Origin: Bacteroidales bacterium
GTDB lineage: Bacteria; Bacteroidota; Bacteroidia; Bacteroidales; F082
Length of the DNA stretch: 64,000 nucleotides
Direction: 5' to 3'
Assembly: GCA_017549805.1 (NCBI GenBank)
Contig: JAFYNJ010000018.1
Coordinates: 12,503-76,502 of the forward strand
The stretch's first letter is position 1, and the number at the start of each line of letters is the position of its first letter. Shown here piece by piece: positions 6,269-63,010 of this stretch. The notes under the pieces were generated by a model, which saw only the letters and a program-made list of their open reading frames with translations, did no database searches and was not told where the DNA came from. The position numbers and the translations under genes were made by a program.

Positions 6269-6283
6269 TACGTGGTTTTTTTG

Positions 6284-6291
6284 TATTTTTG
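6284..6291 (+). promoter_or_regulatory. -7 promoter box TAttTTTG upstream of C25 peptidase paralog 1
   Basis: Exact TAnnTTTG match 21 nt before the ATG at 6312. Confidence 0.5.
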
Positions 6292-6311
6292 CAGCCCAAA
6301 ATTCATTTTCA

Positions 6312-16800: not shown

Positions 16801-17243
16801 AGTTGTTCTTCTATATCGACAACACAAGCAAAGGCGAATGGTCGGGCGAGGTTGGTTGGACCAGGGCCGCCTATCCCTTGACCGCAGGCACCCACGTGCT
16901 CAAATGGGAGTATTCCAAGGATGTTTCCCTGTCAAGCGGTAGCGACTGCGCTTGGATCGACAACGTTACGTTCCCAGCCTCCACCGTCATCTCAGAGGTC
17001 AAGCAAGAAACAAGCCCGGCTGTTGCCGTCTATCCCAACCCGAACAACGGCAGCTTCAACATTAACTTGCCCGAAGAGGATTGCAACCTCGCGATTTACA
17101 ACAGCGTCGGCCAACTCGTGTATCGTCAGGAAAATGCCAGCGGCTTGACCACCCTCCATCTGGAAGGCTTGGACAACGGCATGTATTTCGTCACCGTACA
17201 GTCGGCAAGCGGCATCAGCACACAGAAGTTCGTAAAGCAATAA
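13851..17243 (+). CDS. C25 (gingipain-like) cysteine peptidase family protein with T9SS C-terminal sorting domain, paralog 2
   Basis: Collinear with 6312..9683 (QTIEKSYYFEQPSI vs QVIEQTYHFNQPAI). His motif YVHHNGHANSG, Cys motif FHSQGCDCGAF. CTD YPNPNNGSFNINL...VTVQSASGISTQKFVKQ. Confidence 0.85.
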   Translation: MKKTGFILMLALVCGFVNAQTIEKSYYFEQPSITELQGYEQVQLRGCMQSALAGQPSLPWQSVSLMLPQGQEAESIEVVLSDFQEIEGSHILYPYQPSRAYSDTNPHPFVKDEAVYSSKAVYPNKAEGRLSTQYLNGVGFAFSAFSPVQYEPATGKVSYATKATVVVRTKASRADHSDMLWMSPTNRARVQRLAQNPEMIDNYDTRGRELTAYDLLIITGANFIANYDEYRNYYNNIGLRNRIISVEEIYGSMAGFDNQDKIRNYIIQEYQNNGIMMVVLGGDVNIIPYRGFFCQVQSSSLYESNDIPADLYYCSLDGTWDDNGNNTYGEIGEDDLLPEIGMSRMSFQNATDLANMVNKTLSYQQNPVLSEFHKVILAGEHLYDNPNSNGSDYLELLIGVHEDNGYTTTGYPTTYDFTKLYEEQGNWSGSLLRNAINAGTSYVHHNGHANSGYVAGWYGIDNNDFSGADGTTHNYTLFHSQGCDCGAFDENCILEKMVKIQNFAVAVIGNSRYGWFNEGQTEGPGCHLEREMTDSQWYDRIGLLGCANSDGKCMTAPWVTAPGQWEEGALRWNFYDMNVLGDGAVNVWLDEPFTAVVESPEQVVIGTQSINVTVTDPDGNGLKNYRCLIFMDDDAIAMGVTDEDGVAEIVFEGGLQNVGEMIMKVTGVNSYPIQVEMTAVPSNTPYVVYDSYVLANGAQQIEFGGDYAFDMVLKNVGSVNANNVTATLSCESEYITINQATVNVGNLNGNQSTTLENAFAFSVSDNVPNKTNVRFNIACSDGTDTWESHFNAKIFAPEFELVSVVLETANGQALNIGDSGTLHFTLKNNGNAALPNAVFAIYNSHPEITTGTTTWSYQNVAPGQEFTADLEFTLGQDAQYGVMYELPYAAYYGNYQLNSSYYLPVGQSVEDFETGDFSAFNWQSVNPIYAWEIVTQNPYEGNYCARSSAISDYETTSLFITVEVAQESEVSFYLKVSSESSYDKLFFYIDNTSKGEWSGEVGWTRAAYPLTAGTHVLKWEYSKDVSLSSGSDCAWIDNVTFPASTVISEVKQETSPAVAVYPNPNNGSFNINLPEEDCNLAIYNSVGQLVYRQENASGLTTLHLEGLDNGMYFVTVQSASGISTQKFVKQ

Positions 17244-43300: not shown

Positions 43301-43593
43301 TCATCCATCCTTCCATTTACGAGGCTTTCACCGACCAAGCCAAGGTAAAGAACGAATGCGAGATCCTGTCGCACCAATACGGCATCATCCGTCCCGACCG
43401 TTATGCGGAGCTGCCCGACAAGATCATCCTTTTGGATTACAAGACCGGCCAGAAGGAACGCAAGCATCACGACCAGCTCATGGAATACGCCACCGTCCTG
43501 AAAGAGATGGTCAACAAGAAGATCGACGCCTATCTGGTGTATTTGGGCGATACGGTAGAGGTGGTGCCAGTCCTCAACAATGTCAAAAAATAA
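40381..43593 (+). CDS. UvrD/AddA-type helicase with C-terminal PD-(D/E)xK nuclease domain
   Basis: Walker A SAGSGKTY, FIDEFQDTS, VGDGKQSIYRFRNG, TVHKSKGLAFP, YVAFTRPRQRL. Nuclease-like IIRPDRY...ILLDYKTG. It overlaps the tamB end by 17 nt. Confidence 0.85.
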   Translation: MSQATKNFKVYQASAGSGKTYTIVKEYLKLCLKDSNSTTNFSQILAITFTNKAANEMKEKIVQQLNDIINSDPSQAPQGMEADLIEELNIGRESLKVNAQLLFQHIIHDYSSFCVSTIDSFVQKLARSFAKDLHLPTQYNVNIDKEETADAITDRLGEQIGSSDTYLTEIVEDFSKTKFDNEKSFKITKDIYEFVIKLFSEEAYQKNETNHFETKEQYEETLDFLRKKTQPFEAQCRKFVKEFDAFIKRNGLTANDFYKQSTSPCISIFKKLKKNEYGLVNDNLAKIIKGDAHWYHNTLPNRIGATALEALDKDFQQTILPFLKSYQAQIGNFLFYKEQLNNLSLYVLRFKLKSEIESYIGEEQIVPISEFNKRINQILGDFSVPFIYERLGEHFRHLFIDEFQDTSVLQWQNLMPLVDNSLANNNMSMIVGDGKQSIYRFRNGEVGQIINLPFIYGKPTDAPAFDDYERNFHNNFNFNALNRNFRSFKNIVDFNNSFFEFSSAYLPESCRKVYVDQNEYKQVSIEQQHFFEEEGFVQVELIDANPSNADPMLSRIKELIEDLTSKGFRKSDITILIRTNKIGVLIADYLNKNGIDIFSAESILLCASDKVQLIVNSLDYLIHNDNPAKIATVLYYWNATHQANFNGVVDGFFDKVAMIGQGQTTMEKAMKLEPDVFKSLLSKSYSLYDLCSALMRLYGFNTVGDASLNFLLDVVFKWQHSNENGIDGFLEFWETKKDDLSVLCNNVDAVNIMTVHKSKGLAFPVVIYPFVKDDLNDRKTNSIWITPEELGFETIPNIEKVQFDLTENNSKLNPKTQKIVEQELEKVRLDNLNVHYVAFTRPRQRLHILAYQNNDTTGKSPINAFLKSHPDSYGDPESRKVESNKEPDLPEEIHNDSRSSEWFDKISIDPMPSMFWISKENKMKPVEWGTFVHQALSEVQHAEDIHHVLDPYINSGILDTQTALMLQGIFVQMVIHPSIYEAFTDQAKVKNECEILSHQYGIIRPDRYAELPDKIILLDYKTGQKERKHHDQLMEYATVLKEMVNKKIDAYLVYLGDTVEVVPVLNNVKK

Positions 43594-43687: not shown

Positions 43688-44863
43688 ATGGAAACACTAA
43701 TTGAGTCTTTTAAGATATTGCTGGATTTGACCCCAATGGATTATGTCAGAAGCTTTCATGACAAAATCAATTGGAAAAACAGGCTTATTGGGCTGATGGG
43801 TCAGAAGGGCGTGGGGAAATCGACGCTTTTGCTCCAGCACATCAAGAATTATGACAACCTTGAGGAAACGCTGTATGTTCAGGCCGATGACATGTATTTC
43901 GCCGGGCACGGACTATTTGAAACTGCATACGATTTCTTCAAAAGAGGCGGAAAACGCTTGTATATAGACGAAATTCACAAATACAAAGGTTGGTCCACAG
44001 AGATTAAAATGATTTATGACAGGTTGCCTTCGCTGTCAGTCGTTTATTCTGGAAGTTCACTCTTGGCATTGAAAAAAGGTGGTTCCGCAGACTTAAGCAG
44101 GCGTACCATCGAATACACCATGCCTGGCCTATCGTTCAGGGAATACCTCAATATCGCCAATGGGTGGAATCTAAAAACCTCGTCGTTGGCAGACATCCTA
44201 AAAGGGAAAGTCGATTTCCCGTATGGGGAGCACCGCCCGCTGAAATATTTTGAGGAATACCGCAAAAAAGGTTATTATCCCTATTTCAAGGAAGAAGATT
44301 TCCTTACAAAACTGAAACAGGCCATCAACGAGACCGTTGAACACGACATCCCCGCATACGCCGAGATGCCTATAGCTTCGGCCGTAAAGTTGAAAAAGTT
44401 GATGTATGTGCTGGCCAACAGCGTGCCATTCAAACCGAACTACAGCAAACTGTCGCGTGAATTGGAAATCGGGCGAAACCAGCTCCCAGAGTACATCAAT
44501 TATCTTGAAAAGGCCCGTCTTTTCAATGGTTTAAAAGAAAAGGGCGCAAGCGATTCGATCATCCAGAAGGTAGAAAAACTATACTTGAGCAACAGCAACA
44601 TAGCTTACGCCATCTCCGACACCAAACCCGACGAGGGGACTGTTAGGGAAATGCTGTTCCTCACATGGATGCGCGAGTTGTACATTGTAACAACCTCTAA
44701 GATATCCGATTTCGAAATTGATGGGATCACTTTTGAGGTTGGCGGCAAGAGCAAGAAGGGGCAGCAGGTTAAAGACGCCTCCATCGCCTATCTCGTGAAG
44801 GACGGAATAGAATACGCCGGGGGCAATTCCATTCCTATCTGGATGTTTGGGTTTGTTTATTAA
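43688..44863 (+). CDS. AAA family ATPase (AAA_14 plus DUF4143-type architecture)
   Basis: Walker A GQKGVGKST, Walker B LYIDEIH. Length and C-terminal half are typical of COG1373-type ATPases. Confidence 0.75.
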   Translation: METLIESFKILLDLTPMDYVRSFHDKINWKNRLIGLMGQKGVGKSTLLLQHIKNYDNLEETLYVQADDMYFAGHGLFETAYDFFKRGGKRLYIDEIHKYKGWSTEIKMIYDRLPSLSVVYSGSSLLALKKGGSADLSRRTIEYTMPGLSFREYLNIANGWNLKTSSLADILKGKVDFPYGEHRPLKYFEEYRKKGYYPYFKEEDFLTKLKQAINETVEHDIPAYAEMPIASAVKLKKLMYVLANSVPFKPNYSKLSRELEIGRNQLPEYINYLEKARLFNGLKEKGASDSIIQKVEKLYLSNSNIAYAISDTKPDEGTVREMLFLTWMRELYIVTTSKISDFEIDGITFEVGGKSKKGQQVKDASIAYLVKDGIEYAGGNSIPIWMFGFVY

Positions 44864-44890
44864 AGATACTATTGCCCAACGCAACCTGAT

Positions 44891-45130
44891 TCACTCATCC
44901 CCTACCACGCAATACACAAACTCCCTTTCGACCGACTTCTCATAAGACCTTCGATATTGGATTTCTTTTCTCAGCCGCCCGAACTCCTCATGCAATGCGC
45001 TGATTTGCTTGTTGACAGCTTTGATTTTGGCGGCATCGGTTAGCGTGGGGTTCTTTTGATTTAAGGACTTGATTTGGAGCTTTAGAGCATGTGGTTTTTC
45101 TGAATTAGCTATTGGTCTATGTCTTTTGAA
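44891..45130 (-). pseudogene. Startless copy of the 73-aa coiled-coil gene at 45838..46059
   Basis: Hand translation gives an open 79-codon frame ...EKPHALKLQIKSLNQKNPTLTDAAKIKAVNKQISALHEEFGRLRKEIQYRRSYEKSVEREFVYCVVGDE*. It is collinear with MEDLEKLQFLKFQIKDLEQKRTSLTDADQIKAINKQINAFQEELGKLREILKHERAFLKDVEREFIHCEIGGD. No ATG/GTG/TTG lies upstream of the conserved part. Confidence 0.55.
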
Positions 45131-45247
45131 TTATGATAATGGCTTTATAAAAACAGTTCTTTGTTGCAAAAGCAAAAAAACTTAACTCTTGACGATTATT
45201 ATCTATTTTTGAACCATAAATGCCTAATCGATATGCAATTCCCTTAA

Positions 45248-45796
45248 CTATGCAAGGTCTCTTTCTTTTATTTCTAATATTGTCAAAACTGCAGATTCAG
45301 AACAATAACCGCTACAAGCCTCTTCTTTCAGAAAATGCCGCATCAGATGTTCAAAACACCAAGAGAGTGAAAAAGAAATATCGTCGCGTTTCTTTTTTAA
45401 TAGTGTCAATGTTTTTTGATAATCTTTATTAGTGATTATGCCATCTCTCAACGACTTTTTCAAATCCTTAATCTTTTGCTCTACGATTTCAAACTCACGT
45501 TTTGCTTGGGCTTTTTGGTCAAAGTAATCCGGCAAGGCTTTCATTATTTCATCCCTGTGTTCGACAACTAAATTGTAAAAGTCCCAAAGGCCCATGAGTG
45601 TTTGTTTTGCACGCTCCTCTGCCTTTTCTCCTGTCCATCCGAAAGGCGCAAAATATGGTATATGGCTTCCGCCGTGCAAATAACCGCTAGGTATTTCCAA
45701 AGAGCACACCAAATCTTTATGAGAATATGAGAACTTCCCTCTTATGATAGTTCCTTCGTATTCAAATTGGATTTCTTTTTCAGGACTATTTTCCAT
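45248..45796 (-). CDS. Hypothetical protein (182 aa)
   Basis: Longest ORF in an AT-rich stretch, co-oriented with its neighbours. No recognisable motif. Confidence 0.5.
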   Translation of the reverse strand: MENSPEKEIQFEYEGTIIRGKFSYSHKDLVCSLEIPSGYLHGGSHIPYFAPFGWTGEKAEERAKQTLMGLWDFYNLVVEHRDEIMKALPDYFDQKAQAKREFEIVEQKIKDLKKSLRDGIITNKDYQKTLTLLKKKRDDISFSLSWCFEHLMRHFLKEEACSGYCSESAVLTILEIKERDLA

Positions 45797-45837
45797 TATT
45801 TAAATTATTCTTGGCTCCCGAAGCATCAATACTGTTA

Positions 45838-46059
45838 TTAATCACCCCCAATCTCACAGTGGATAAACTCTCTTTCAACGTCTTTCAGAAAGGCCCTCTC
45901 GTGTTTCAGTATTTCCCTCAACTTCCCAAGCTCTTCCTGGAAGGCGTTGATTTGCTTGTTAATGGCTTTGATTTGGTCAGCATCAGTCAGCGAGGTCCTC
46001 TTTTGCTCCAAGTCTTTGATTTGAAACTTTAGGAATTGTAGTTTTTCTAAATCTTCCAT
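45838..46059 (-). CDS. Hypothetical coiled-coil protein (73 aa)
   Basis: Heptad-like charged sequence. It shares the L-Q-I-x-x-L-x-Q-K...LTD...I-x-A-[IV]-[ND]-[KQ]-Q-I module with 44891..45130 and with the N-terminus of 46962..47579. Confidence 0.5.
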   Translation of the reverse strand: MEDLEKLQFLKFQIKDLEQKRTSLTDADQIKAINKQINAFQEELGKLREILKHERAFLKDVEREFIHCEIGGD

Positions 46060-46088
46060 TATTTTATGGTTTTACAATTTGATAGGCT

Positions 46089-46115
46089 CAAAATAAGAGG
46101 CGGCCAAGCCGCCTC
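46089..46115 (-). terminator. Rho-independent terminator after the 46137..46358 gene
   Basis: Minus strand reads GAGGCGGC-TTG-GCCGCCTC followed by TTATTTT. Confidence 0.65.
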
Positions 46116-46136
46116 CTTCAATAATGCTTTCAAACG

Positions 46137-46358
46137 TTAAAGTTTTGTGACTTCGAACATCGAATCCGAAATACTTCCTTCAATTCGATTCCCCGTTTGT
46201 TCTGCCCACATATGGACAGCATTTGTGGCATGTCCACGGGACAAATCGTTGTTGCTCTCAACTATAAAAGATTCTCCTTTTTTGTAGCGTTTGCCTCCAG
46301 CAAAGAAAGCACCGTCACGAGTGACTGTAACAAGAAATTGCGCCATAGTTTTATGCAA
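46137..46358 (-). CDS. Hypothetical small protein (73 aa; may start at the MAQFLV Met)
   Basis: ORF followed by a clear terminator. Family not recognised with confidence. Confidence 0.5.
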   Translation of the reverse strand: MHKTMAQFLVTVTRDGAFFAGGKRYKKGESFIVESNNDLSRGHATNAVHMWAEQTGNRIEGSISDSMFEVTKL

Positions 46359-46441
46359 TTGCCTTTACATTGCGAGGTTGTTATTGTTTTTTGTTTATTT
46401 AAATTTCTTTTTCAGCAAGCAACTCTTGTAATTGCCAGACC

Positions 46442-46738
46442 TCAATCCAACCTCCAGCCGTCTGCGACAAGGTCTTCCATGGAGTCGTAATGGGCAATGA
46501 TTGGCCCGTTCTCTTTTTTCTCAAAAGCATCGTCCTCTGTCGAGAAGAAGTCCTCGTCCGAAATGACACGGATATTATATTTACAGTTATGCAAATCAGA
46601 AGTGCTGATGTAGGGCACCGCGTCTTCGGGAACACCCTCGTGATAAGGTTTAAACACAGGGGTGGGCGGCATGCATTTCTCATAAATCTCTCGTAGCATT
46701 TCAAGTTGCCTCATTCTTTGTTCTTGTTCTCTATCCAT
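46442..46738 (-). CDS. Hypothetical protein (98 aa), acidic
   Basis: ORF tightly packed (3 nt) behind 46741..46935. No motif recognised. Confidence 0.5.
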   Translation of the reverse strand: MDREQEQRMRQLEMLREIYEKCMPPTPVFKPYHEGVPEDAVPYISTSDLHNCKYNIRVISDEDFFSTEDDAFEKKENGPIIAHYDSMEDLVADGWRLD

Positions 46739-46740
46739 TT

Positions 46741-46935
46741 TCAGTTTGTCTCCTTCTTTTTATAATGGATCAAGACGATGGTTTTGTTTTGACACTCTGA
46801 GAGTTTGATGTCAACAACGTCAACATATTTATCATTGACTTGCAACCATTGGTTTACTTTGTCTTGTATCTCTTCGATGTTGTCGTGAAACACCTTCACT
46901 GAGTTAGTATTGTTCATTCCATGTACTACTGCCAT
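46741..46935 (-). CDS. Hypothetical small protein (64 aa), Cse60-like layout
   Basis: VKVFHDNIEEIQDKVNQWLQVNDKYVDVVDIKLSE...IVLIHYK resembles the small Cse60/DUF2758-type pattern. Weak, from recollection only. Confidence 0.4.
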   Translation of the reverse strand: MAVVHGMNNTNSVKVFHDNIEEIQDKVNQWLQVNDKYVDVVDIKLSECQNKTIVLIHYKKKETN

Positions 46936-46961
46936 AGTTCTTGATATTTATTGGTTTGTGT

Positions 46962-47579
46962 TTATAGATTTCCCAGCCAAATGCCTCGGCACAAAGCCTT
47001 GGCGGTTTCATGGTCAACAATGCGCATCAACTGATAGGTGTATTTGTCTGTTGCCTCATCATCAATCGCCTCCAAATCAAAAGCATCCCAATACTCCTTA
47101 CCGTATTCAGGGCACAAGAACCTTATCACATCGACAAATGTGATTTTCTCGAATCGTTTCAAGTGGTCATTTTTAACATATTCCCGAAGCCAATAACTAC
47201 CTGCCCAAAACGCAACCGTTCTTTGTCCTATAGTCGCTTTATCCTTATCCAATGTCAGAATCCCCAAAAGCCTCATGGCTTGATAAGGAGGAATATTGGC
47301 ACCTTGCTCCGCCAATTCATAGAACATTTTTTCGTCTTCATTTAATTCTTCCACCATCTTAGGATTTGAGTCATCCTCTGAACCATTGAAGACAACATCA
47401 ATGAGAGCCTTCACATTATTTCTTTCTTCCAACCAATCTTCCGCCTCCAAAGCATCAATTTGCTGATCGATGGCATTTATTTCTGCGACATCGGTCAGAG
47501 CGGCCTTCTTTTGCTCTAATTCCATGATTTGAAGCCGTCGTTCACGTAATCCTTTTGATTTTTCTATAGAATCATTCAT
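46962..47579 (-). CDS. Hypothetical protein (205 aa) with N-terminal coiled-coil module
   Basis: The N-terminus RRLQIMELEQKKAALTDVAEINAIDQQIDALEAE is the third copy of the island module. The C-terminal 140 aa is unassigned. Confidence 0.5.
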   Translation of the reverse strand: MNDSIEKSKGLRERRLQIMELEQKKAALTDVAEINAIDQQIDALEAEDWLEERNNVKALIDVVFNGSEDDSNPKMVEELNEDEKMFYELAEQGANIPPYQAMRLLGILTLDKDKATIGQRTVAFWAGSYWLREYVKNDHLKRFEKITFVDVIRFLCPEYGKEYWDAFDLEAIDDEATDKYTYQLMRIVDHETAKALCRGIWLGNL

Positions 47580-47605
47580 CTGCTTATAGTTATTCTGTTT
47601 TCATT

Positions 47606-47977
47606 TCAGTCCCAGTGACGCCAAGTGTTTTCTTTAGTGCTAACACGATACCCATCATTCACCAACAAATCAACAAGGGACGAAAACGGCTTTGACATGG
47701 TGATACAAGCCACTCCTTTAGGATCCCAACATTCTATGGTCTCAACCGAATCTGGGAAAGCGATTTTGGTCAATGCTGTACATCCCAAAAAAGCATTAGG
47801 ATTTATCGTTTCAACCGTTTTTGGCAAAACCACTTCTTTCAAATCTGTATAATTCAAAAAAGCTCCACTATCAATTATCTTTGTTCCATCAGGAATGACA
47901 CACACACCATCTTTGATATCATCGGGATGACCAAAATAATGATCATACTTTCCTATTCTTTTATCTGCTTTTGCCAT
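47606..47977 (-). CDS. Small BspA-type leucine-rich-repeat (LRR_5-like) protein
   Basis: IPDGTKIIDSGAFLNYTDLKEVVLPKTVETINPNAFLGCTALTKIAFPDSVETIE matches the IPxxVxxIGxxAFxxCxxL repeat. Confidence 0.55.
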   Translation of the reverse strand: MAKADKRIGKYDHYFGHPDDIKDGVCVIPDGTKIIDSGAFLNYTDLKEVVLPKTVETINPNAFLGCTALTKIAFPDSVETIECWDPKGVACITMSKPFSSLVDLLVNDGYRVSTKENTWRHWD

Positions 47978-48100
47978 ATTATTTGTTTTTATTTTTTTCT
48001 ATCCTTTTTTTCATCGCAAAGAAACACCCATTTCCTCAATCCCATCTGGATCTTATTGGTTCATATCACCCCGCCGTTTGACAACACAAAAAAAGCGTGA

Positions 48101-48108
48101 TACTTTTG
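48101..48108 (+). promoter_or_regulatory. -7 promoter box TActTTTG pointing into the long hairpin
   Basis: Exact TAnnTTTG match 7 nt before the hairpin base at 48115. Confidence 0.35.
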
Positions 48109-48114
48109 CATCCG

Positions 48115-48231
48115 CTTATCGAGGTGTTTGGCATACCTAAAGAAACCGAATGTTAAAAGTTCACGCTATACGGCGTGACTTTTAGCATTATCTCCGTTTC
48201 TTTATCCAAAAATCGCCAAACTTCCGATAAG
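48115..48231. ncRNA. 117-nt imperfect hairpin: candidate sRNA, or structured 5' leader/antisense pair
   Basis: Manual pairing: 48115-48121 with 48225-48231; 48126-48132 with 48215-48221; 48139-48146 with 48196-48203; 48152-48159 with 48179-48186; 48161-48166 with 48173-48178. Loop TATACG. Strand undetermined. Confidence 0.45.
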
Positions 48232-48316
48232 AAAGATTACTGCTAATTGTCTGTATTGCTTATCTCATACGCCTTGCGGCAAGATCACTTCATAGGCATT
48301 TTTTTGTTTTACGCTT

Positions 48317-48324
48317 CAAAGATA
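48317..48324 (-). promoter_or_regulatory. -7 promoter box (minus strand TAtcTTTG), candidate promoter of the small-gene island
   Basis: The plus strand reads CAAAGATA. It lies just downstream (minus sense) of the lipoprotein gene terminator, about 340 nt before the ATG at 47977. Confidence 0.4.
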
Positions 48325-48363
48325 AGTATTTTTTGAAATCAATCAAAGCGATTGTTGGTTTTT

Positions 48364-48404
48364 ATAAAAAAAAGCGGCAACGCCTTTTTCCTGACGATGC
48401 CGCT
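48364..48404 (-). terminator. Rho-independent terminator after the 48437..49261 lipoprotein gene
   Basis: Minus strand reads AGCGGCA-N18-TGCCGCT followed by T8. Confidence 0.6.
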
Positions 48405-48436
48405 CAAAGAACCTGACGTTCCAACTTCAGTCATCT

Positions 48437-49261
48437 CTATTCATCATATTCAAAGACCGCGTCAGTAAAACTCTCTTCAATCTTTTCATAACGCTTCTTC
48501 TGGGTCGAGGTCATCTTGCCCGACTTGTATGCCTTATCCAGTTCATCCTCTAAATCGTCAGCCGCCCAAAAGTATTTATCAACTTGAGATTCAACACTCT
48601 TGTCTCCCTTGCTAAGCTTCTTTACATACTTGATATATTCGTTCACGTTCTTTTCATAATCATCAAGCATTTTGTTCCAGTCTTGGCTGGATGATGACGA
48701 TGAAACGGTGGTGTTGTTAGCCGTGCTACTTGAACTGCTTGACTTGTGAGCCCAACTCAATTCCACAGTCAGACCAATCCCGTCAATAAGGTCAAAATAG
48801 GCTTTTTGTTTTTTGTATGATTTATCACCAAAACCATATTCAATGATCGGGACATTCCCCGTGATAAGCTCATTCGATTTCAACAGCTTTTCTCCACTTT
48901 GATAATCCGTCTGAACATCGAGATCCACCTTCATATTATACTGGTCGATGTACTTGGCATATATTCTTACCCCATAAATACTATGATCAAGTTTGGGATC
49001 ACTTCCTGGTATTTCGTTCCAAAGAGTTGTGTTTTTTAGCGGAAGATCGGCACGAATCTCCCATTTGTCACCCTCCACCCCAACTGGAACAAGCATCAAC
49101 GTGACGGGATCCTCAATCTCAAAAAGATCGGCATTTTTCCCGTCAATGCTCACCCTATCGGATGAAATCGTCTTGCTTAACACTTTCTTTTTCTGGCATG
49201 AGGTGACGGTAACCGCTAACAACATCAGGACAACAAGTCCAAACAGTCCTGTCTTTTTCAT
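48437..49261 (-). CDS. Lipoprotein with poly-Ser linker, unknown function
   Basis: Lipobox LLAVTVTSC. Internal SSSSSSTANNTTVSSSSSS linker, then a charged helical C-terminal domain. Confidence 0.65.
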   Translation of the reverse strand: MKKTGLFGLVVLMLLAVTVTSCQKKKVLSKTISSDRVSIDGKNADLFEIEDPVTLMLVPVGVEGDKWEIRADLPLKNTTLWNEIPGSDPKLDHSIYGVRIYAKYIDQYNMKVDLDVQTDYQSGEKLLKSNELITGNVPIIEYGFGDKSYKKQKAYFDLIDGIGLTVELSWAHKSSSSSSTANNTTVSSSSSSQDWNKMLDDYEKNVNEYIKYVKKLSKGDKSVESQVDKYFWAADDLEDELDKAYKSGKMTSTQKKRYEKIEESFTDAVFEYDE

Positions 49262-49355
49262 CTGAAAATCCCTAATTCCGTGTCGGGCGCAACTTCTAAA
49301 GGTAAATTGAAATACCTTGCAAAGAAACGCCCTTTCAACGGAATATCCGCGGATC

Positions 49356-50486
49356 TTATTGGCTCATGTTTTGGGCGTTTTCCTCATTGATCCTATCCGA
49401 CAACCTGAAACAAACCGCGTTGTACTTCTCGTTGTGGAGATGCTCCCAGGCCGTGACGAACTCATCACGGGTTTTCGGATCGTCGAGCAAGGGTGACTGG
49501 ATGTCCTGCAGCAACGACCTGCAAACCTTCACCCGATCCACAAAGTCAAGAGAAACCTCTTGACTGGATTTGCCACTGTCAAGGTCGGCCAACACGGGGT
49601 TGTACATGCTGTCGATGATATGCTCCGCCCTATCGAGAAGTTCCGTGAACTCAAGGGAATAACCATCGAGGCGAGACAGCTCTTTCGACCTCATGAAAAA
49701 CAACGCCGCCAATAGGCCCAATACGGCAACTACCAAAGCCAACTTAGGCCAGACGGCCCTGTTTCGGAAAGCCTTCTGTACGGCTTCAATATTGCCGTAA
49801 CGGCGCTCCCTGTCTTGACGAGAACACTTGGCGGCAATGTGTCGGAAACGATTCGGAAAGACCTCTCGCAACAACATGCCGAAAGTGTAAATGTCGGCGC
49901 GACCGTCAATCTTCACCTCGGGCTGTATCTGCTCCGGCGCCATGTATTGCTGCGTGCCTGCGGGTTGCTTCAACAAGGCATAATCGTCCGCATCGGAAAG
50001 ACCGAAGTCAATCAGCTTTACATTGTGACCATTACGGGTAATCAGGATGTTACTCGGCTTCAAGTCGCGATGGACGATTTGCTTACCATGGACATACTTC
50101 AAGGCATCCAAGATCTGTTCCAGCACCTTCTTTTTCTCCGAAACTGATGGATTGGCCCTCAAAAACTCATCCAACGTCACTCCATCCACATACTCCATCA
50201 CAATGCACGGGCCCACCTCGGGATTCACCTCCTTGTATAACGCCTTCACGATGTTGAGATGATCCATCTGAATGGAAAGCTCATATTCCTTTTTCAGCAG
50301 ATCCAGGTACATGGGCTGCTGCATGAACTCCGGCTTCAAACCTTTCAGCAGGAACCATCTACCCTGACGCATGACCTTCACCAAGCGGTTGAATCCATGC
50401 GTCGTCAGCTCCTCGTAAGTCAGCTGCTCGTCTAAATCGGTGATAAAGCCGCCATCAATGATCTCGGAGGTGAAGTCTTCGTCCAT
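49356..50486 (-). CDS. Membrane-anchored serine/threonine protein kinase
   Basis: HRDLKPSNILI catalytic loop, DFGLS, APEQ. One TM helix (WPKLALVVAVLGLLAALFF) followed by a helical C-terminal domain of about 110 aa. Confidence 0.85.
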   Translation of the reverse strand: MDEDFTSEIIDGGFITDLDEQLTYEELTTHGFNRLVKVMRQGRWFLLKGLKPEFMQQPMYLDLLKKEYELSIQMDHLNIVKALYKEVNPEVGPCIVMEYVDGVTLDEFLRANPSVSEKKKVLEQILDALKYVHGKQIVHRDLKPSNILITRNGHNVKLIDFGLSDADDYALLKQPAGTQQYMAPEQIQPEVKIDGRADIYTFGMLLREVFPNRFRHIAAKCSRQDRERRYGNIEAVQKAFRNRAVWPKLALVVAVLGLLAALFFMRSKELSRLDGYSLEFTELLDRAEHIIDSMYNPVLADLDSGKSSQEVSLDFVDRVKVCRSLLQDIQSPLLDDPKTRDEFVTAWEHLHNEKYNAVCFRLSDRINEENAQNMSQ

Positions 50487-50502
50487 TTGCTTTCATTTCC
50501 AG

Positions 50503-51140: not shown

Positions 51141-52313
51141 TCACTCCATCAACCGATAATACTTCGTCTGGTAATCAAGCTGGTGTTCAGCCATAACCCC
51201 AGGATGGAAAAGATAGATGAAATCGCCGAGCAGGCGCTCAGGTTCGATCTGCGAAGTCTCGAAATAACCCGTCTCTTGGATATCACAAACGATAATCTTA
51301 TGGTTCTTATATGCGTCAAACAAGGCATATGCCGAGTTTTCGCGCTTCAAGGTCTCGTAGGTCATCGGCAAGGAAGATGAGTTGGCCACGCGCCAAAAAT
51401 CGGCGTGCTGGGCCTTGGCTAGGATGGTTTCAGAATCCAAAGGGAAGCTGGCCGTAGAAGGATCGTCCTTCCAGATGTAATCGGCACCAGCATCCTCGAA
51501 AAGCTGGGCGATGTAGCTCTTGCCACCCGCTACATACCATTGGCCGTTGAAGGCCAAGTCGGAGAACACGGTGGGGCGCTCCCGAACGTCAGCACACCAA
51601 TCCTTCAACTCATTGTAGCGTTGTTCGATGTCATCGAACCAAGCATCGGCACGATCGCTGCTACCGGTCAACAAACCTACTACACGGATCCATTCAGCCC
51701 TACCCAAGGGGGTCGATTCCAAATAATCGGCAAAAGGAAACAACACTGCACCCGTCACCTTCAACGGATCTTGGTTGCCATCAAAATAAGGGGAATACAG
51801 AATGATGTCGGGATGCATCTGGATCATCAGTTCCATGTTCTTTGCCGATTCAGTGCCAACATCCTGCACCACCCCGTCGGCAAGCAGCTCCTTCATCTTG
51901 GGGCTATGGATGTTTCGACCTTCCAAGATGCCCTTTACACGGTCGATTTCATTCAATTCAATGAACACCGACCATTGCGTGGAAGAAAAGGAGATTACCG
52001 ACTGGACGGGAATCTTGACCACTGTCAAGCCATCGGCAGCAATCGACTGATCATGGAAAGGCTCTTCCACCAAGGCAAAGGCGCCCAAACGCTGGGTAGA
52101 ATCCCAAGGATTGAGCACCTCCATACAATAGCCGTAATCTGTAGAATAGGCAGTCACGTTCCGGGCATAGCGAAAAAGATTCCCGCCAACGCTATCTTGC
52201 TGCAAAACAGCCTCTGGAACCACCCGCTGCTGCGTATTGTTCCTGCATGACATCATCAAGAGCATCATGCAGAGCCACAACAGCGTGCTTATTTTGACAA
52301 GATTTCGAGACAT
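51141..52313 (-). CDS. Periplasmic binding protein (class Peripla_BP_2; iron-siderophore/cobalamin type), lipoprotein signal
   Basis: Signal MSRNLVKISTLLWLCMMLLMMSC. Overall resemblance to BtuF/FhuD-type binding proteins. It is the last gene of the riboswitch-led operon. Confidence 0.7.
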   Translation of the reverse strand: MSRNLVKISTLLWLCMMLLMMSCRNNTQQRVVPEAVLQQDSVGGNLFRYARNVTAYSTDYGYCMEVLNPWDSTQRLGAFALVEEPFHDQSIAADGLTVVKIPVQSVISFSSTQWSVFIELNEIDRVKGILEGRNIHSPKMKELLADGVVQDVGTESAKNMELMIQMHPDIILYSPYFDGNQDPLKVTGAVLFPFADYLESTPLGRAEWIRVVGLLTGSSDRADAWFDDIEQRYNELKDWCADVRERPTVFSDLAFNGQWYVAGGKSYIAQLFEDAGADYIWKDDPSTASFPLDSETILAKAQHADFWRVANSSSLPMTYETLKRENSAYALFDAYKNHKIIVCDIQETGYFETSQIEPERLLGDFIYLFHPGVMAEHQLDYQTKYYRLME

Positions 52314-52447
52314 TCCTTGCATAGGCAGTCGTTATACTGTTGCAACTTGGCCCGTGTTTGCTCGGTCAGCTCGACTTTGGCGCACCAGCAGTCTTTCGAA
52401 TGGACACACTCGAATTCCTTACCGCATCTCGGACATTTCTTCTTCAT
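52289..52447 (-). CDS. Cysteine-rich CWC family mini-protein (52 aa, below the ORF-track cut-off)
   Basis: Hand translation gives MKKKCPRCGKEFECVHSKDCWCAKVELTEQTRAKLQQYNDCLCKECLEILSK, with the pattern CPRCG...CWC...CLCxxC. Confidence 0.7.
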   Translation of the reverse strand: MKKKCPRCGKEFECVHSKDCWCAKVELTEQTRAKLQQYNDCLCKECLEILSK

Positions 52448-52456
52448 TCTGTCTTC

Positions 52457-53542
52457 TCAATTAAACAACATAAATCCCGGGCAGATGCCTGCAGTGAACG
52501 AACTCAACAGCACACCGTCCGACGAATAGCGATACACCTCGCCGTCAACCGTATAGTTTTTGGCATCCGTCACATACACATCGCCGCTATTGGGATCCAC
52601 GGCAATCTTGTAGAACATCTTGCCCTCCCCGGAAATCACAAAAGCATCCTCGACGGTTGGATTATTGATGCTGACACGATGCACATCGCCGCCATTGACA
52701 TAATCTCCTCCACGGAAATAATAGAGATAACTCCCCGAAGGATCGACGGCCAGGTTCATGGCAGTCTCCTCGAATTCGACCATACGCGATGCGTTTTTCG
52801 TTGCCGGATCGATCATCCAAAGCGAAGGGGACTCGGGATTGGCATCCCACACAGCACCTTCGCAAAGCACCCAAACCTTACCGTTCTTGTCTGCCACCAT
52901 GCCGTTGGGCTCCTTGCCCACCGTGATTTCAGCCACTTTCACATCGTTTTCGATGTCAACCACCTGAACGGTATTGTTCTCCATCCCTGGAACATAATAA
53001 CTCGACCAGTTGGTCACATACAATTCCCGGCCGACCTGCACCATGGTTTCGGTGGATTTTCCCATGTCGATGCTGCCGGTATGCGTCATGTCTTGCGGAT
53101 TGACGATCCATAGCACCGTGCTCATCAAATCGGAGACGTATGCTTTGTTGGGAGCCACTGCCAGCATGTAACGAGGCGAGTCAAAATCCGTGATCATGTA
53201 AGGCTTCGTCAAGTCGCACTTGATGGTATTGGCATCGACCTTATAGATGATGTTGCTATTGTTGACCACGATATAGAGCATGCCGTCGATGAGTGCCAAG
53301 CTCTGTCCGGTATCGCCGAGGACCGCACCGTCGTTGGCACGGTAAAAGAGCCTGTTGGCAACAGTGTCCATCTCGGGATCGTAGAATGTCAGCGTGGAGC
53401 CACCATTGGTGAAACTTCCCTCGTTGATAACAAAAACGCCCTTGCCTATAGTCACGGTTTCCGGATCATTCGGCTCGTCGGGCGTACAGGAAGCCAACAG
53501 CATTGCCATCAGGCATAAAAGCAAAACATGAATCTTTTTCAT
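52457..53542 (-). CDS. Surface lipoprotein, YncE/DUF5074-like beta-propeller
   Basis: Lipobox LLASC. Repeated blade-like segments (GVFVINEGSF..., LYIVVNNSN..., LYVTNWSS..., YVTDAKNY...). Confidence 0.65.
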   Translation of the reverse strand: MKKIHVLLLCLMAMLLASCTPDEPNDPETVTIGKGVFVINEGSFTNGGSTLTFYDPEMDTVANRLFYRANDGAVLGDTGQSLALIDGMLYIVVNNSNIIYKVDANTIKCDLTKPYMITDFDSPRYMLAVAPNKAYVSDLMSTVLWIVNPQDMTHTGSIDMGKSTETMVQVGRELYVTNWSSYYVPGMENNTVQVVDIENDVKVAEITVGKEPNGMVADKNGKVWVLCEGAVWDANPESPSLWMIDPATKNASRMVEFEETAMNLAVDPSGSYLYYFRGGDYVNGGDVHRVSINNPTVEDAFVISGEGKMFYKIAVDPNSGDVYVTDAKNYTVDGEVYRYSSDGVLLSSFTAGICPGFMLFN

Positions 53543-53545
53543 GGG

Positions 53546-54526
53546 TTATTTCTTTATAAACTTATTAACAATGGTTTTTCCTTCAATTTGGATGGATATG
53601 AAATACACGCCAGAAGGAAGGCATGATACATCAACTTGATTGCCATCGGAGGCCATCACCCGTTGTCCCACCATGGAATAGACAGTGATGGATTCCACAT
53701 TGTCGGCTTGGACGGTAAGTATGTCACGCACGGGATTGGGAAACACCAACGCACTTACGGTGGAATGGTCGTTCACATTAAGATGCGCCACATCGTGAAT
53801 CACGCCAACGGCATCGAGGTCGAAGCCACTCGAGGCAAACGGGGTAGGCCACGGGTCGTTGATGACATGCCCTTGGCAATCGTATGTGGCGTATTGTGGA
53901 TCAATGCTGCCCACCACATCAATGACACGGACATGGGTCACGCTGTTTTTGTTGAGAAGCGGGTTGTCCTCCAACTCATCCAAGTCGAACGGAGTGCCAT
54001 ACATGGCGGCGTATTTGCTGGCCAGATTGTGAATCAGACTTGGATCGATGCATGCCATACCACCTAATTGCGGCTCTTGGGGCGCATTGAAATAAGCGGG
54101 AAAACGAAAGTAGTTACGTCCATCGGAACTTACCTCAACAAAGGCCAACTCAAGGAAAAACATATTGGGGTACTGGGCATTGGCGAATCCATTCTCAAAC
54201 ACGGCAAAATCGGGTCCCGGTCCATTACAAATGGGTGAGCGGAAGGTCAAAGTAGCCCTACCGCCATCGCCCAGACAGGTTACACCATAGGTTCCTTCAG
54301 GAGCACCCAGGGCATTTTCAGCAGGCCAACCGGCGCCCGCCACACCCGCGCTGGGGTTGGTGATGTTCATCGGGCCCGGTTCCACCACACACCCTGTCGC
54401 CCAGCCCACGAAAGCCGACGAGTCAGCATGCATGGCGGTGGTTCCCTCCTGCCCCGCCGGTGGCGCGAATTGCGCCACCGACAGTAACGGGAGGACAACT
54501 AAAAATATGGATAAGATTTTTCTCAT
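53546..54526 (-). CDS. Secreted protein with T9SS type A C-terminal sorting domain
   Basis: Signal MRKILSIFLVVLPLLSVAQ. CTD LVFPNPVRDILTVQ...GVYFISIQIEGKTIVNKFIKK. Confidence 0.7.
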   Translation of the reverse strand: MRKILSIFLVVLPLLSVAQFAPPAGQEGTTAMHADSSAFVGWATGCVVEPGPMNITNPSAGVAGAGWPAENALGAPEGTYGVTCLGDGGRATLTFRSPICNGPGPDFAVFENGFANAQYPNMFFLELAFVEVSSDGRNYFRFPAYFNAPQEPQLGGMACIDPSLIHNLASKYAAMYGTPFDLDELEDNPLLNKNSVTHVRVIDVVGSIDPQYATYDCQGHVINDPWPTPFASSGFDLDAVGVIHDVAHLNVNDHSTVSALVFPNPVRDILTVQADNVESITVYSMVGQRVMASDGNQVDVSCLPSGVYFISIQIEGKTIVNKFIKK

Positions 54527-55740
54527 TGCACAAAGAGCTTCACCGTCTGACGGCCAGTTGCATTGCTAACTGTCACAAAATAAACACCGGCTTGATAGCC
54601 CGCAGTCTCAATACGGATGGGCTCATTGGCCTGCTGCACGGCGAAAGTGCTGAGCACCCTGCCTTGAAGATCGACCACAGTCACCACAGCATCCTCGTTC
54701 ATGCCTTCAAGGTTCAGCATGGTGTAGGATGTAGCAGGATTTGGATAGAGAGAGAGCGTCATTTGATTCTCGTTGATATTGGTATTATTAACAACGGGCT
54801 GCACTGGAGTTTCCCAGACATAGGTCCATGGAGCAATCTCGGTAGCAATGGTATAGTCACCCCACTTCACGAAATCTCCATTAATAACAGTTTGCTCGTC
54901 GAAAGTAAGCCATGACACAGCACCGTTCAGGTTGTACATGGCGTTATAGCCTTGAAGGACATATTGGTTCCCACCATAGTTGAAGGAGAGGTCGGTAAGC
55001 ATATAGCCACCCCAGGCTGACGGTTCGTCATTAAAAGCAAAGCGTTGGTCAACCTCAGCGATAGCTTCCATCATATCTTTGATTGTGACACTTTCAGCAG
55101 AGAAGCGGTAACCCCAGGCATAGCACACATCCTCAGGATCGGCAAAGTTGACGGAAAAGACCACTTCATTCTCGCCTTCGCCAATCCAATAAAGGATTTC
55201 CGAGGGATCGATCGTGGCTTCTTCACCAAGAGCGTAAACAGGGGCGACTTCCTTTTCATAGACATAGATCCAGTTGTCAGGATCCACCATGGTGCCGCAA
55301 TGGGTATCGCCTATTTTAACATATTCACCATTGCCAACTAAAGCTTCATCAAATAAATCCCATGTGGAATTGCCATTAATCAAATAGGTAAGCCATCCTT
55401 GTTGCACCAAGCTCAAGTTGAGAACTCCGTTATCGAAATGCAAATCGTTGAGCATACTGCCGCTTGATTCATAGCTGAAACGGTAATCCGCTGCTGCGAT
55501 GTCGTCCATGATGGTTTTCAAAACGACATTTTCACCATCGAAACGGTAGCCCCATGCCAATGCCGTGTCAGGTTCCGCCCAGTTTACGATGAACACCAAT
55601 TGGCTTTGACCTTCGCCAATCCAATACTTGATTTCGGAAGGATCGATAGTGGCATCTTGTTGGGCAAAGAGGTTGGTCGTGAACAGACCGAAGATTCCCA
55701 TAAGGAATAAAAGGGTAAAGTTTTTAATACGCATACGCAT
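54523..55740 (-). CDS. Secreted protein with two internal repeats of about 150 aa and a T9SS type A C-terminal sorting domain
   Basis: Repeats begin DATIDPSEIKYWIGEGQSQLVFIVNWAEPDTALAWGYRF and EATIDPSEILYWIGEGENEVVFSVNFADPEDVCYAWGYRF. CTD LYPNPATSYTML...GVYFVTVSNATGRQTVKLFVQ. Confidence 0.7.
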   Translation of the reverse strand: MRMRIKNFTLLFLMGIFGLFTTNLFAQQDATIDPSEIKYWIGEGQSQLVFIVNWAEPDTALAWGYRFDGENVVLKTIMDDIAAADYRFSYESSGSMLNDLHFDNGVLNLSLVQQGWLTYLINGNSTWDLFDEALVGNGEYVKIGDTHCGTMVDPDNWIYVYEKEVAPVYALGEEATIDPSEILYWIGEGENEVVFSVNFADPEDVCYAWGYRFSAESVTIKDMMEAIAEVDQRFAFNDEPSAWGGYMLTDLSFNYGGNQYVLQGYNAMYNLNGAVSWLTFDEQTVINGDFVKWGDYTIATEIAPWTYVWETPVQPVVNNTNINENQMTLSLYPNPATSYTMLNLEGMNEDAVVTVVDLQGRVLSTFAVQQANEPIRIETAGYQAGVYFVTVSNATGRQTVKLFVQ

Positions 55741-55847
55741 AAGTTTTAAAGGTTAATAATTCCAATTCCTTCAAAACTCTCAAGGACAGGGGTTGGGTAC
55801 CTATAATAAATGAAGCCAGCTCTTATCCCGAAAGCCTTGTTTTCAAC

Positions 55848-55998
55848 GATACGAGGCAGGTCTTCTGACTTGGGTCTTTTCTTGCCGCCTTCCCATCGGA
55901 CGGAGGGTCCGACAGTGGCTTAGTGGCAAGCGTCCAACCGACACAGCAGCGGGAACTGTCCGGGATTCACACCCGATTCCCTATTGAGTCCTTACGGA
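55848..55998 (-). promoter_or_regulatory. Cobalamin (B12) riboswitch
   Basis: Minus strand reads AATAGGGAATCGGGTGTGAATCCCGGACAGTTCCCGCTGCTGT...GCCACTG...GGGAAGGCGGC...AGTCAGAAGACCTGCC (B12 box at 55870..55855). Confidence 0.9.
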
Positions 55999-56014
55999 CA
56001 CCACATATCGCTCG

Positions 56015-56022
56015 CAAAGGTA
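56015..56022 (-). promoter_or_regulatory. -7 promoter box (minus strand TAccTTTG) upstream of the riboswitch
   Basis: The plus strand reads CAAAGGTA, directly after the aldo/keto reductase stop and about 15 nt before the riboswitch 5' end. Confidence 0.5.
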
Positions 56023-62790: not shown

Positions 62791-62878
62791 GGAGATATGG
62801 CTGAGTGGTCGATAGCGGCGGTCTTGAAAACCGTTAAACCGAAAGGTTTCGGGGGTTCGAATCCCTCTGTCTCCGCCA
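62791..62878 (+). tRNA. tRNA-Ser (anticodon TGA), CCA encoded
   Basis: Acceptor GGAGATA/TGTCTCC, anticodon stem-loop GCGGT-CTTGAAA-ACCGT, long variable arm, T-arm GGGGGTTCGAATCCCTC. Confidence 0.92.
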
Positions 62879-62915: not shown

Positions 62916-63001
62916 GGAAAGATGCCGGAGTGGTCGATCGGGGCGGTCTCGAAAACCGTTGAACGCTTTGCGTTCCAAGGGTTCGAATCCCTTTCTTTCC
63001 G
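62916..63001 (+). tRNA. tRNA-Ser (anticodon CGA)
   Basis: Acceptor GGAAAGA/TCTTTCC, anticodon stem-loop GCGGT-CTCGAAA-ACCGT, long variable arm, T-arm AAGGGTTCGAATCCCTT. Confidence 0.92.
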
Positions 63002-63010
63002 CAGACAGGA

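Follow-up and report, generated by a model that had tools for sequence, protein, structure and literature searches.

A Cobalamin Riboswitch Operon from a Bacteroidales Bacterium Combines a BtuG Homolog with Candidate Corrinoid-Capture Proteins Carrying Type IX Sorting Domains

We describe here an operon in a 64,000-nucleotide stretch of DNA from a rumen Bacteroidales bacterium (assembly GCA_017549805.1, contig JAFYNJ010000018.1, positions 12,503 to 76,502 of the forward strand); "the window" below means this whole stretch. The operon, or cassette, consists of a cobalamin riboswitch and five genes. Genes 1 and 2 encode proteins with a C-terminal sorting domain (CTD) of the type IX secretion system (T9SS), gene 3 a homolog of the surface lipoprotein BtuG, gene 4 a small protein of the Cys_rich_CWC (CWC) family, and gene 5 a BtuF-like binding lipoprotein. 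Judging from comparative sequence analysis, the operon is likely repressed by cobalamin and likely supplies those components of corrinoid uptake that capture the ligand outside the cell, with the transporter encoded elsewhere. The evidence that carries this reading is the riboswitch itself, a BtuG homolog that keeps nine of eleven known ligand contacts, and the near-universal association of both CTD-protein families with B12 loci.

RESULTS

A cobalamin riboswitch precedes five tightly packed genes

An Rfam search of the whole window gave one cobalamin riboswitch, RF00174, on the minus strand at 56020-55838. The match spans the complete model (positions 1-189 of 189), and its 109.6 bits exceed the gathering score, which is 31.5 (E = 1.5e-26). 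Directly 5′ of it, at 56022-56015, is the box TACCTTTG, an instance of TAnnTTTG, which we take to be the Bacteroidota −7 promoter motif; the T-A-n-n-T-T-T-G positions are unchanged in an alignment of the window with four diverged cassette loci. The features of the operon, all on the minus strand, are as follows.

56015..56022, minus: promoter box TACCTTTG (TAnnTTTG), from sequence reading and alignment
55838..56020, minus: cobalamin riboswitch aptamer (RF00174), covariance-model match
55742..55778, minus: leader hairpin, probable expression platform, from minimum-free-energy and centroid folds
54523..55740, minus: gene 1, 405 amino acids (aa); signal peptide, two repeats of ~140 aa, T9SS type-A CTD
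55237..55653, minus: gene 1 repeat 1, residues 30-168, DUF4430-related unit, from repeat hidden Markov model (HMM) envelopes
54793..55218, minus: gene 1 repeat 2, residues 175-316, from repeat HMM envelopes
54526..54750, minus: gene 1 T9SS CTD, residues 331-405 (PF18962, TIGR04183)
53546..54526, minus: gene 2, 326 aa; signal peptide, unnamed passenger domain of ~230 aa, T9SS type-A CTD
53777..54469, minus: gene 2 passenger domain, here called g2dom, residues 20-250
53549..53746, minus: gene 2 T9SS CTD, residues 261-326 (PF18962, TIGR04183)
52457..53542, minus: gene 3, BtuG homolog, 361 aa, lipoprotein (Cys19), seven-bladed beta-propeller
52289..52447, minus: gene 4, Cys_rich_CWC protein, 52 aa (PF14375)
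51141..52322, minus: gene 5, BtuF-like class-III substrate-binding lipoprotein (Cys26), 393 aa (Peripla_BP_2)

The aptamer lies 98 nucleotides (nt) from gene 1. The leader between them folds into a hairpin with a stem of 11 to 12 bp, the 3′ arm of which stops 1 nt short of the gene 1 start codon; its arms, AGUUUUGARG and CCUUUAAAACU, are found again in most cassette leaders. This conserved hairpin is probably the expression platform, and it may act by blocking the translation start. An intrinsic terminator was considered for the same role and rejected, as none is predicted on the minus strand from the aptamer to the start codon.

The five co-oriented open reading frames (ORFs) that follow are closely spaced. 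Gene 1 overlaps gene 2 by 4 nt, gaps of 3 nt and 9 nt separate gene 2 from gene 3 and gene 3 from gene 4, and the end of the CWC gene overlaps the start of the BtuF-like gene by 34 nt. We set the end of the operon at 51141 because the next gene downstream is on the opposite strand. An aldo-keto reductase/4Fe-4S gene upstream, which stops 6 nt before the promoter box, was rejected as a member; it precedes both promoter and riboswitch and is missing from more distant cassette loci, and it therefore lies outside the unit.

Much of this had been proposed in a first-pass annotation made from the sequence alone, and the layout that it described stands: the riboswitch core and B12-box strings that it singled out fall inside the full-length RF00174 alignment, the TAccTTTG-type box that it placed before the riboswitch is the conserved TACCTTTG, and the five co-oriented, tightly packed genes are real minus-strand ORFs. 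The searches below also bear out its T9SS CTDs on the first two products, its two-repeat reading of the 405-aa protein, its CWC miniprotein, and its BtuF/FhuD-class binding protein. One description needed correction. The third product had been called a beta-propeller-like lipoprotein; it is a propeller and a lipoprotein, but rather than being merely propeller-like it matches BtuG over its full length.

Genes 3 to 5 encode a BtuG homolog, a CWC protein, and a BtuF-like lipoprotein

In a phmmer search of the PDB, the gene 3 product matched solved Bacteroides thetaiotaomicron BtuG structures over its full length (residues 4-358 of 361), with E = 6.6e-55 for 8bmx_D and E = 6.6e-53 for BtuG2 (8bmy/8bmz). 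Pfam assigns it to DUF5074 (98.7 bits), an NHL/propeller family. Cobalamin contacts listed for BtuG2 are E55, F58, Q93, N107, S131, S195, Y196, Q219, Y239, Y316, and Y335 (PMC13616437, a 2026 review). When these were located through the phmmer alignment to 8bmx_D, with numbering as in the literature, 9 of the 11 were identical in gene 3; at the other two positions, Q219 is replaced by E and Y239 by V. The N terminus, MKKIHVLLLCLMAMLLASC, reads as a lipoprotein signal peptide in which Cys19 is followed by acidic residues (TPDEPND), and the mature protein is presumably exposed at the surface. By these comparisons, gene 3 encodes a true full-length BtuG homolog.

The gene 4 product matches Cys_rich_CWC (PF14375, E = 1e-10), has 8 Cys residues and no signal peptide, and is cytoplasmic by sequence. 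Gene 5 encodes a Peripla_BP_2 protein (86.4 bits, E = 2.6e-24) with lipoprotein Cys26 and without an acidic stretch behind it. Its nearest curated families, FhuD and IsdE, are weak matches (E about 1e-6), and it has no close relative among solved structures; a homolog follows BtuB-BtuG in a Chitinophagales operon (L054).

Gene 1 encodes a predicted T9SS cargo protein with DUF4430-related repeats

The extreme C terminus of the gene 1 protein matches the T9SS sorting domain families PF18962 (Por_Secre_tail; E = 1.6e-11) and TIGR04183 (E = 9.7e-12), and in Foldseek it matches the solved CTDs 8qb1 and 8glk. Its N terminus is hydrophobic and ends LFA followed by QQ, so that, by sequence reading, cleavage is predicted after LFA with Q at +1. 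The AlphaFold2 model of the protein has a mean predicted local distance difference test (pLDDT) score of 80.2.

Its two internal repeats align with each other at a score of 301. The protein is one of a family in which 1197 members were detected; these vary chiefly in having two, three, or four repeats (97, 16, and 8, respectively, among the members listed), and the repeats are homologous to one another across the family at 145-279 bits. Several homologs score above the Pfam cutoff of 23.8 bits for DUF4430, the domain found at the C terminus of transcobalamins (PMC4350170): protein P0003 at 74.3 bits, P0060 at 54.5, and the single-repeat protein of locus L033 at 32. In the three- and four-repeat homologs, one DUF4430 stretch is matched per repeat, and the homologous repeats of P0003 and P0060 are at 49-55% identity. 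This relationship may point to direct corrinoid binding by gene 1. No Pfam match to DUF4465 was found in gene 1, and the hhalign probability between its repeat and DUF4465 is 0.6%.

Gene 2 carries a large, unnamed domain family

Gene 2 also ends in a T9SS CTD, at its extreme C terminus (PF18962, E = 1.3e-12; TIGR04183, E = 9.5e-14), which resembles 8glk_D at a template modeling score of 0.79 in Foldseek. Its hydrophobic N terminus ends SVA followed by QF and reads as a signal peptide.

A g2dom profile collected 2688 clusters at 50% identity (E ≤ 1e-3), 970 of them below 1e-30, in proteins from 200 to more than 2200 residues long. No Pfam family was matched by the domain in 81 diverse members scanned individually, PDB profile searches with several alignments at E ≤ 10 returned CTDs only, and no profile-profile similarity to the gene 1 repeat was seen. 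Among named families, only the uncharacterized Leptospira LIC_13355 lipoprotein family is matched, and that in part. Invariant acidic or polar residues of the domain are D87, D106, E111, N112, E126, D203, D216, and D236.

Some g2dom proteins are fused to other domains together with a CTD: three to DUF4465 (P0250, P0341, and P0356) and one to DUF4430 (P0246). DUF4465 is the domain of BtuJ, for which B12 binding is proven structurally and biochemically (PMC13616437, PMC13398666). On one short contig (L014:737-3010), a DUF4465-g2dom-CTD fusion directly follows a gene for a 188-aa DUF6580 protein.

Two identities for gene 2 were tried and, on sequence grounds, rejected. As a BtuJ (DUF4465, PF14717), it has no Pfam match, and the hhalign probability for g2dom is 0.1%. 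As a BtuH relative, its PDB profile searches (BtuH2 C-terminal domain 7BIZ; 8BLW chain B) match the CTD only; 8blw_B did appear in Foldseek at rank 48 (E = 0.068), from a low-confidence gene 2 model, and we do not count it as evidence.

The gene 1 and gene 2 families are linked to B12 loci

Contigs from rumen or gut metagenomes hold exact or near copies of gene 1 within the full set of five genes; assemblies that bear the cassette include GCA_017530365.1, RUG11952 (CACYHP01, a 1.38-Mb contig), and Candidatus Limimorpha MAGs. A Bacteroidales metagenome-assembled genome (MAG) at NCBI with 72% identity keeps the gene order with other genes downstream. At about 50% identity, three- and four-repeat versions are found in the order gene 1, gene 2, BtuG, CWC, binding protein, in different neighborhoods. 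RF00174 lies ahead of the gene 1 homologs in L005 and L007-L012, in differing genomic contexts; in Rfam searches, it precedes every gene 1 relative with enough upstream sequence.

We then surveyed g2dom loci with one genome per species, reading locus layouts from ORFs and local HMMs and checking them with Pfam. The survey comprises 80 loci: 22 from rumen or gut Bacteroidales MAGs (52-74% protein identity) and 58 from Flavobacteriales, Chitinophagales, Cytophagales, and other Bacteroidota (41-54% identity), the latter including cultured Flavobacterium, Aequorivita, Mesonia, Mariniflexile, Winogradskyella, and Algibacter. When the loci were scanned with a covariance model made from five cassette riboswitches, 68 of the 80 had an upstream match on the same strand. 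The weakest matches were confirmed by Rfam, with scores of 85-102 bits, and two further loci were added in this way, bringing the count to 70 of 80. Among the ten without a riboswitch, several are contigs that end just upstream of the gene. All 22 rumen-clade loci have a same-strand riboswitch.

Outside the rumen clade, a BtuB-like TonB-dependent receptor of 610-670 aa is in the riboswitch operon in 38 of 58 loci and in the locus in 46, and BtuG is present in 40. By Pfam, these receptors have plug and barrel domains and the neighboring genes encode DUF4465 with Por_Secre_tail; such a DUF4465-CTD protein often accompanies the g2dom-CTD protein. Typical orders are riboswitch-receptor-BtuG-g2dom, riboswitch-receptor-DUF4465CTD-g2dom-BtuG, and riboswitch-DUF4465CTD-g2dom-receptor-BtuG; in five loci, the riboswitch directly precedes a solitary g2dom gene. 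T9SS-sorted B12 accessory proteins, as predicted from their CTDs, are widespread beside BtuB outside the rumen clade.

In the rumen clade, all 22 loci begin with a gene 1-type protein, in the slot held elsewhere by DUF4465-CTD. BtuG and the binding protein are each present in 15 of these and CWC in 16 (CWC is found in none of the 58 other g2dom loci), and the flanking genes vary. In seven rumen-clade loci, BtuG and the binding protein are both absent from the two strands, and these loci hold CTD proteins only, with or without CWC. An intermediate arrangement is seen in a non-rumen Bacteroidales MAG (L042), where the riboswitch is followed by a single-repeat gene 1, gene 2, a receptor, and BtuG. 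One rumen/gut clade has lost the receptor gene from its operon, and this state is derived.

Several side observations came from these loci. In two Candidatus Limimorpha/rumen MAGs, extra genes between btuG and CWC were considered as btuCD and rejected, being an EcoRI restriction-modification system with endonuclease and methylase inside the cassette (L024:12200-16263, together with an AAA ATPase, and L026:12210-14061). A Flavobacteriia B12 operon has a DUF5074 propeller with a T9SS sorting domain adjoining an ordinary lipoprotein BtuG (L039:8948-10240), and similar DUF5074-CTD genes of 428-431 aa in L041, L064, and L069 likewise encode a T9SS-sorted BtuG/BtuK-like paralog. Finally, copies of the Flavo-1 small RNA (RF01705) lie within a few kilobases of Flavobacterium B12 operons (L040:12746-12830, L055:2871-2951, L066:14611-14688, and L087:2817-2903), which may be coincidence.

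No transporter gene accompanies the cassette

Among the larger ORFs of the 64-kb window, none was identified by Pfam as a TonB-dependent receptor, a FecCD permease, or an ATP-binding cassette (ABC) ATPase, and a BtuB-type HMM had no match among all window ORFs of at least 150 aa. Similarly, no TonB-dependent receptor is encoded within 10 kb in 22 of 22 rumen-clade cassette loci. Stand-alone btuB-btuG pairs do occur on other Bacteroidales metagenome contigs, including L097:8001-11079 and L098:6194-9183, the two named pairs having no accessory, btuF, or btuCD genes nearby; this is the kind of locus that could complement a receptor-less cassette.

Surroundings of the operon in the window

Two large C25-family (gingipain-like) peptidases with a propeptide and a T9SS sorting domain are encoded at 6060-9683 and 13851-17243; they were considered as the sortase PorU and rejected, at 30.9 bits versus a cutoff of 420. 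Other larger ORFs encode a GH3 enzyme, PNPase, FeoAB, an M13 peptidase, and Na/H exchangers. At 35910-43593 are two very large plus-strand ORFs of 1495 and 1070 aa. The L005 counterpart of the 1070-aa ORF has UvrD-helicase domains, and the other has only DUF748; we take the two for a helicase-nuclease pair of the AddAB-like kind. A tandem pair of tRNA-Ser genes (anticodons TGA and CGA) is at 62791-62878 and 62916-63002, and L005 has this pair about as far from its cassette.

Just downstream of the cassette, positions 44000-50500 have a low GC content (0.40-0.45 versus about 0.50) and hold an AAA_14/DUF4143 ATPase, an LRR_5 protein, small ORFs, and a Ser/Thr protein kinase (49356-50486). The 72%-identity relative has a tricorn-type protease in place of this block, which is probably a variable or mobile region.

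DISCUSSION

A proposed capture operon working with unlinked transport genes

The features described above suggest the following scheme. We imagine that, when intracellular corrinoid is low, the riboswitch would permit expression of the five genes. The gene 1 and gene 2 proteins would be exported by Sec, their type-A CTDs would be recognized by the T9SS, and the proteins would end up bound to the surface, released, or on vesicles; cargo with a type-A CTD is either surface-anchored or released. Outside the cell, the DUF4430-type repeats and g2dom may bind corrinoids or corrinoid carriers and hand the corrinoid to the surface lipoprotein BtuG, which would deliver it to a BtuB-type TonB-dependent channel. 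In the periplasm, the BtuF-like lipoprotein would take the corrinoid for a BtuCD-type importer, with BtuB and BtuCD both encoded at other sites in the genome. What we infer in this scheme is that the gene 1 and gene 2 proteins bind corrinoid and are located at the surface, that transfer runs in the direction given, and that the unlinked transporter exists. A binding protein serves no purpose unless an ABC importer is present; the operon thus cannot be autonomous and must depend on unlinked genes, which makes an unlinked BtuB the simplest reading.

In its main lines, this is also what the first-pass annotation had suggested, and the comparisons favor it. The absence of BtuB and BtuCD that it noted for the operon extends to the 64-kb window and to 22 of 22 species-representative relatives. 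The survey for a nearby btuB that it called for showed none near rumen-clade cassettes and found the gene commonly in non-rumen g2dom operons. The corrinoid role that it proposed for the CTD proteins gains comparative support from the riboswitch in 70 of 80 loci, the shared operons with BtuB, BtuG, and DUF4465, the domain fusions, and the DUF4430-positive homologs of gene 1.

Several observations weigh against this reading. That B12 controls expression as a ligand is an assumption drawn from the aptamer. Gene 1, whether whole or as separate repeats, has no Pfam match to DUF4430 (PF14478), and the Foldseek top 50 for its whole model, dominated by the CTD, consists of CTD and Ig-like matches only, with no transcobalamin. 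For g2dom, no link by Pfam, PDB, or profile-profile search was found to BtuH, BtuJ, or another known B12 binder, and the AlphaFold2 model of gene 2, made from a shallow alignment, is poor (pLDDT 59.4); because of this, we discarded its Foldseek list, including a weak match to a BtuG1 chain. Homologs of the L042 receptor did not reveal a partner BtuB in the cassette genomes, nor was BtuCD found there. Since btuG is reported always to adjoin btuB (PMC10404256), an unlinked pairing of the two is without precedent. Lastly, no T9SS machinery genes are present in the window, which encodes four CTD proteins.

One could instead suppose that the gene 1 and gene 2 proteins serve B12 acquisition without binding corrinoid themselves, as enzymes or receptors that free it from carriers, in docking of B12-loaded proteins or vesicles, or as a scaffold for BtuG. 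The invariant acidic and polar residues of g2dom would fit a catalytic or calcium site equally well, the domain has no detectable relation to known B12-binding folds, and in the DUF4465 fusions, the DUF4465 part alone could bind. This is nonetheless unlikely in our judgment: the riboswitch stands directly before a lone g2dom gene in five loci, and the DUF4430 relationship of gene 1 suggests direct binding. In addition, the seven rumen-clade loci that hold CTD proteins only, with or without CWC, imply that these proteins must do something useful with B12 unaided.

Those same seven loci, lacking BtuG and the binding protein, and the fact that none of the 22 cassette loci has a receptor gene within 10 kb would also suit a stand-alone extracellular reservoir that sequesters corrinoid, hoarding B12 from competitors rather than feeding a dedicated channel. 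B. thetaiotaomicron BtuJ provides such a case, being an extracellular reservoir on vesicles (PMC13616437; bioRxiv 10.1101/2025.07.01.662609). We consider this explanation still less probable for the window operon, which includes BtuG and a periplasmic binding protein, sensible only in an import route; repression by B12 suits acquisition under need, and the same families are found inside BtuB operons in most other Bacteroidota. That the locus is a decaying, nonfunctional remnant of a full btuB-btuG-btuFCD operon whose transporter genes were lost, as the complete receptor-bearing arrangement in other Bacteroidota and the EcoRI genes that landed inside the cassette in two species might suggest, is very improbable, given five intact ORFs with signal peptides and sorting domains, a receptor-less order kept in 22 species-level genomes at 52-74% protein identity, a conserved riboswitch and promoter box, and a BtuG that retains its ligand contacts.

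We therefore favor an outer capture operon that works with transport genes elsewhere, and a wider proposal, to which we give an even chance, can be built on it. In T9SS-bearing Bacteroidota, the extracellular arm of B12 uptake may consist of T9SS cargo instead of lipoproteins and include two uncharacterized corrinoid-binding families, g2dom and the DUF4430-type repeats in tandem. The rumen Bacteroidales would have made of this arm a separate riboswitch operon, sometimes of T9SS cargo alone, acting in trans with an unlinked receptor and so breaking the rule that btuG stands beside btuB.

Gut and rumen communities share B12 as a keystone nutrient, and current models of competition for it among Bacteroidota rest almost wholly on the Bacteroides lipoproteins BtuG, BtuH, BtuJ, and BtuK. 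To our knowledge, the genus Bacteroides has no T9SS; much of the phylum may send its B12-capture proteins through that system. A very large unnamed family, g2dom, is a prime candidate for a new B12 binder, and genes for capture and for transport may lie apart on the chromosome. Cultured Flavobacterium species have a related operon with riboswitch, BtuB, BtuG, and a g2dom-CTD protein, in that order in L040, L055, L066, L083, and L087, and T9SS mutants exist, making these ideas directly testable.

Comparison with known systems

Heme capture in Porphyromonas gingivalis, where T9SS-anchored proteins capture heme and pass it to the HmuY lipoprotein and the TonB-dependent receptor HmuR, offers an analogy only: surface capture of a tetrapyrrole by T9SS cargo is alike, whereas the ligand and the protein families are different and there is no riboswitch. 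In Escherichia coli, btuB, btuF, and btuCD lie at separate loci yet work together (PMC8941943), and the uptake components proposed for the window system would similarly be encoded at unlinked sites. Unlike the window system, E. coli has neither BtuG nor extracellular accessory binders, and its riboswitch is on btuB itself.

The C-terminal domain of transcobalamin and intrinsic factor (DUF4430, PF14478), tied to B12 in animals (PMC4350170), resembles the gene 1 family in that homologs of gene 1 pass the gathering score repeat by repeat. The window repeats themselves differ in falling below detection, in their length of ~140 aa, which is about twice that of the Pfam domain, and in having no alpha-domain partner. 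No bacterial DUF4430 protein with demonstrated B12 binding was found in the literature searched. As for BtuJ/DUF4465, its proteins in other Bacteroidota take the same operon position, often just before g2dom, and have a T9SS CTD too; T9SS sorting or secretion goes unmentioned in the published DUF4465 and BtuJ1 papers. DUF4465 is absent from the products of both gene 1 and gene 2 (no Pfam match; hhalign below 1%).

The closest comparison is with the Bacteroides model, in which a relay of the lipoproteins BtuJ, BtuH, BtuK, and BtuG is organized around BtuB (PMC13616437). Like the B. thetaiotaomicron Btu loci, the window operon has riboswitch control, a BtuG with the same ligand contacts apart from the two changes given above, a BtuF-type lipoprotein, and extra extracellular accessory proteins ahead of BtuG. 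In contrast to those loci, it has no btuB beside btuG and no btuCD; its accessory proteins are predicted T9SS type-A cargo, not lipoproteins, with domains (DUF4430-type repeats and g2dom) other than BtuH, BtuJ, or BtuK; and it has an additional CWC miniprotein. The first-pass annotation knew of no described system with this arrangement, and none turned up in the literature that we searched on BtuG/BtuH, these DUFs, cobalamin riboswitches with T9SS, BtuB with T9SS, and Prevotella BtuG. The system nevertheless belongs with the known Bacteroidota B12-uptake loci and is not a new category; what makes it notable is the predicted routing through T9SS, two uncharacterized families of candidate B12 binders, of which g2dom is very large, and the separation of btuG from btuB.

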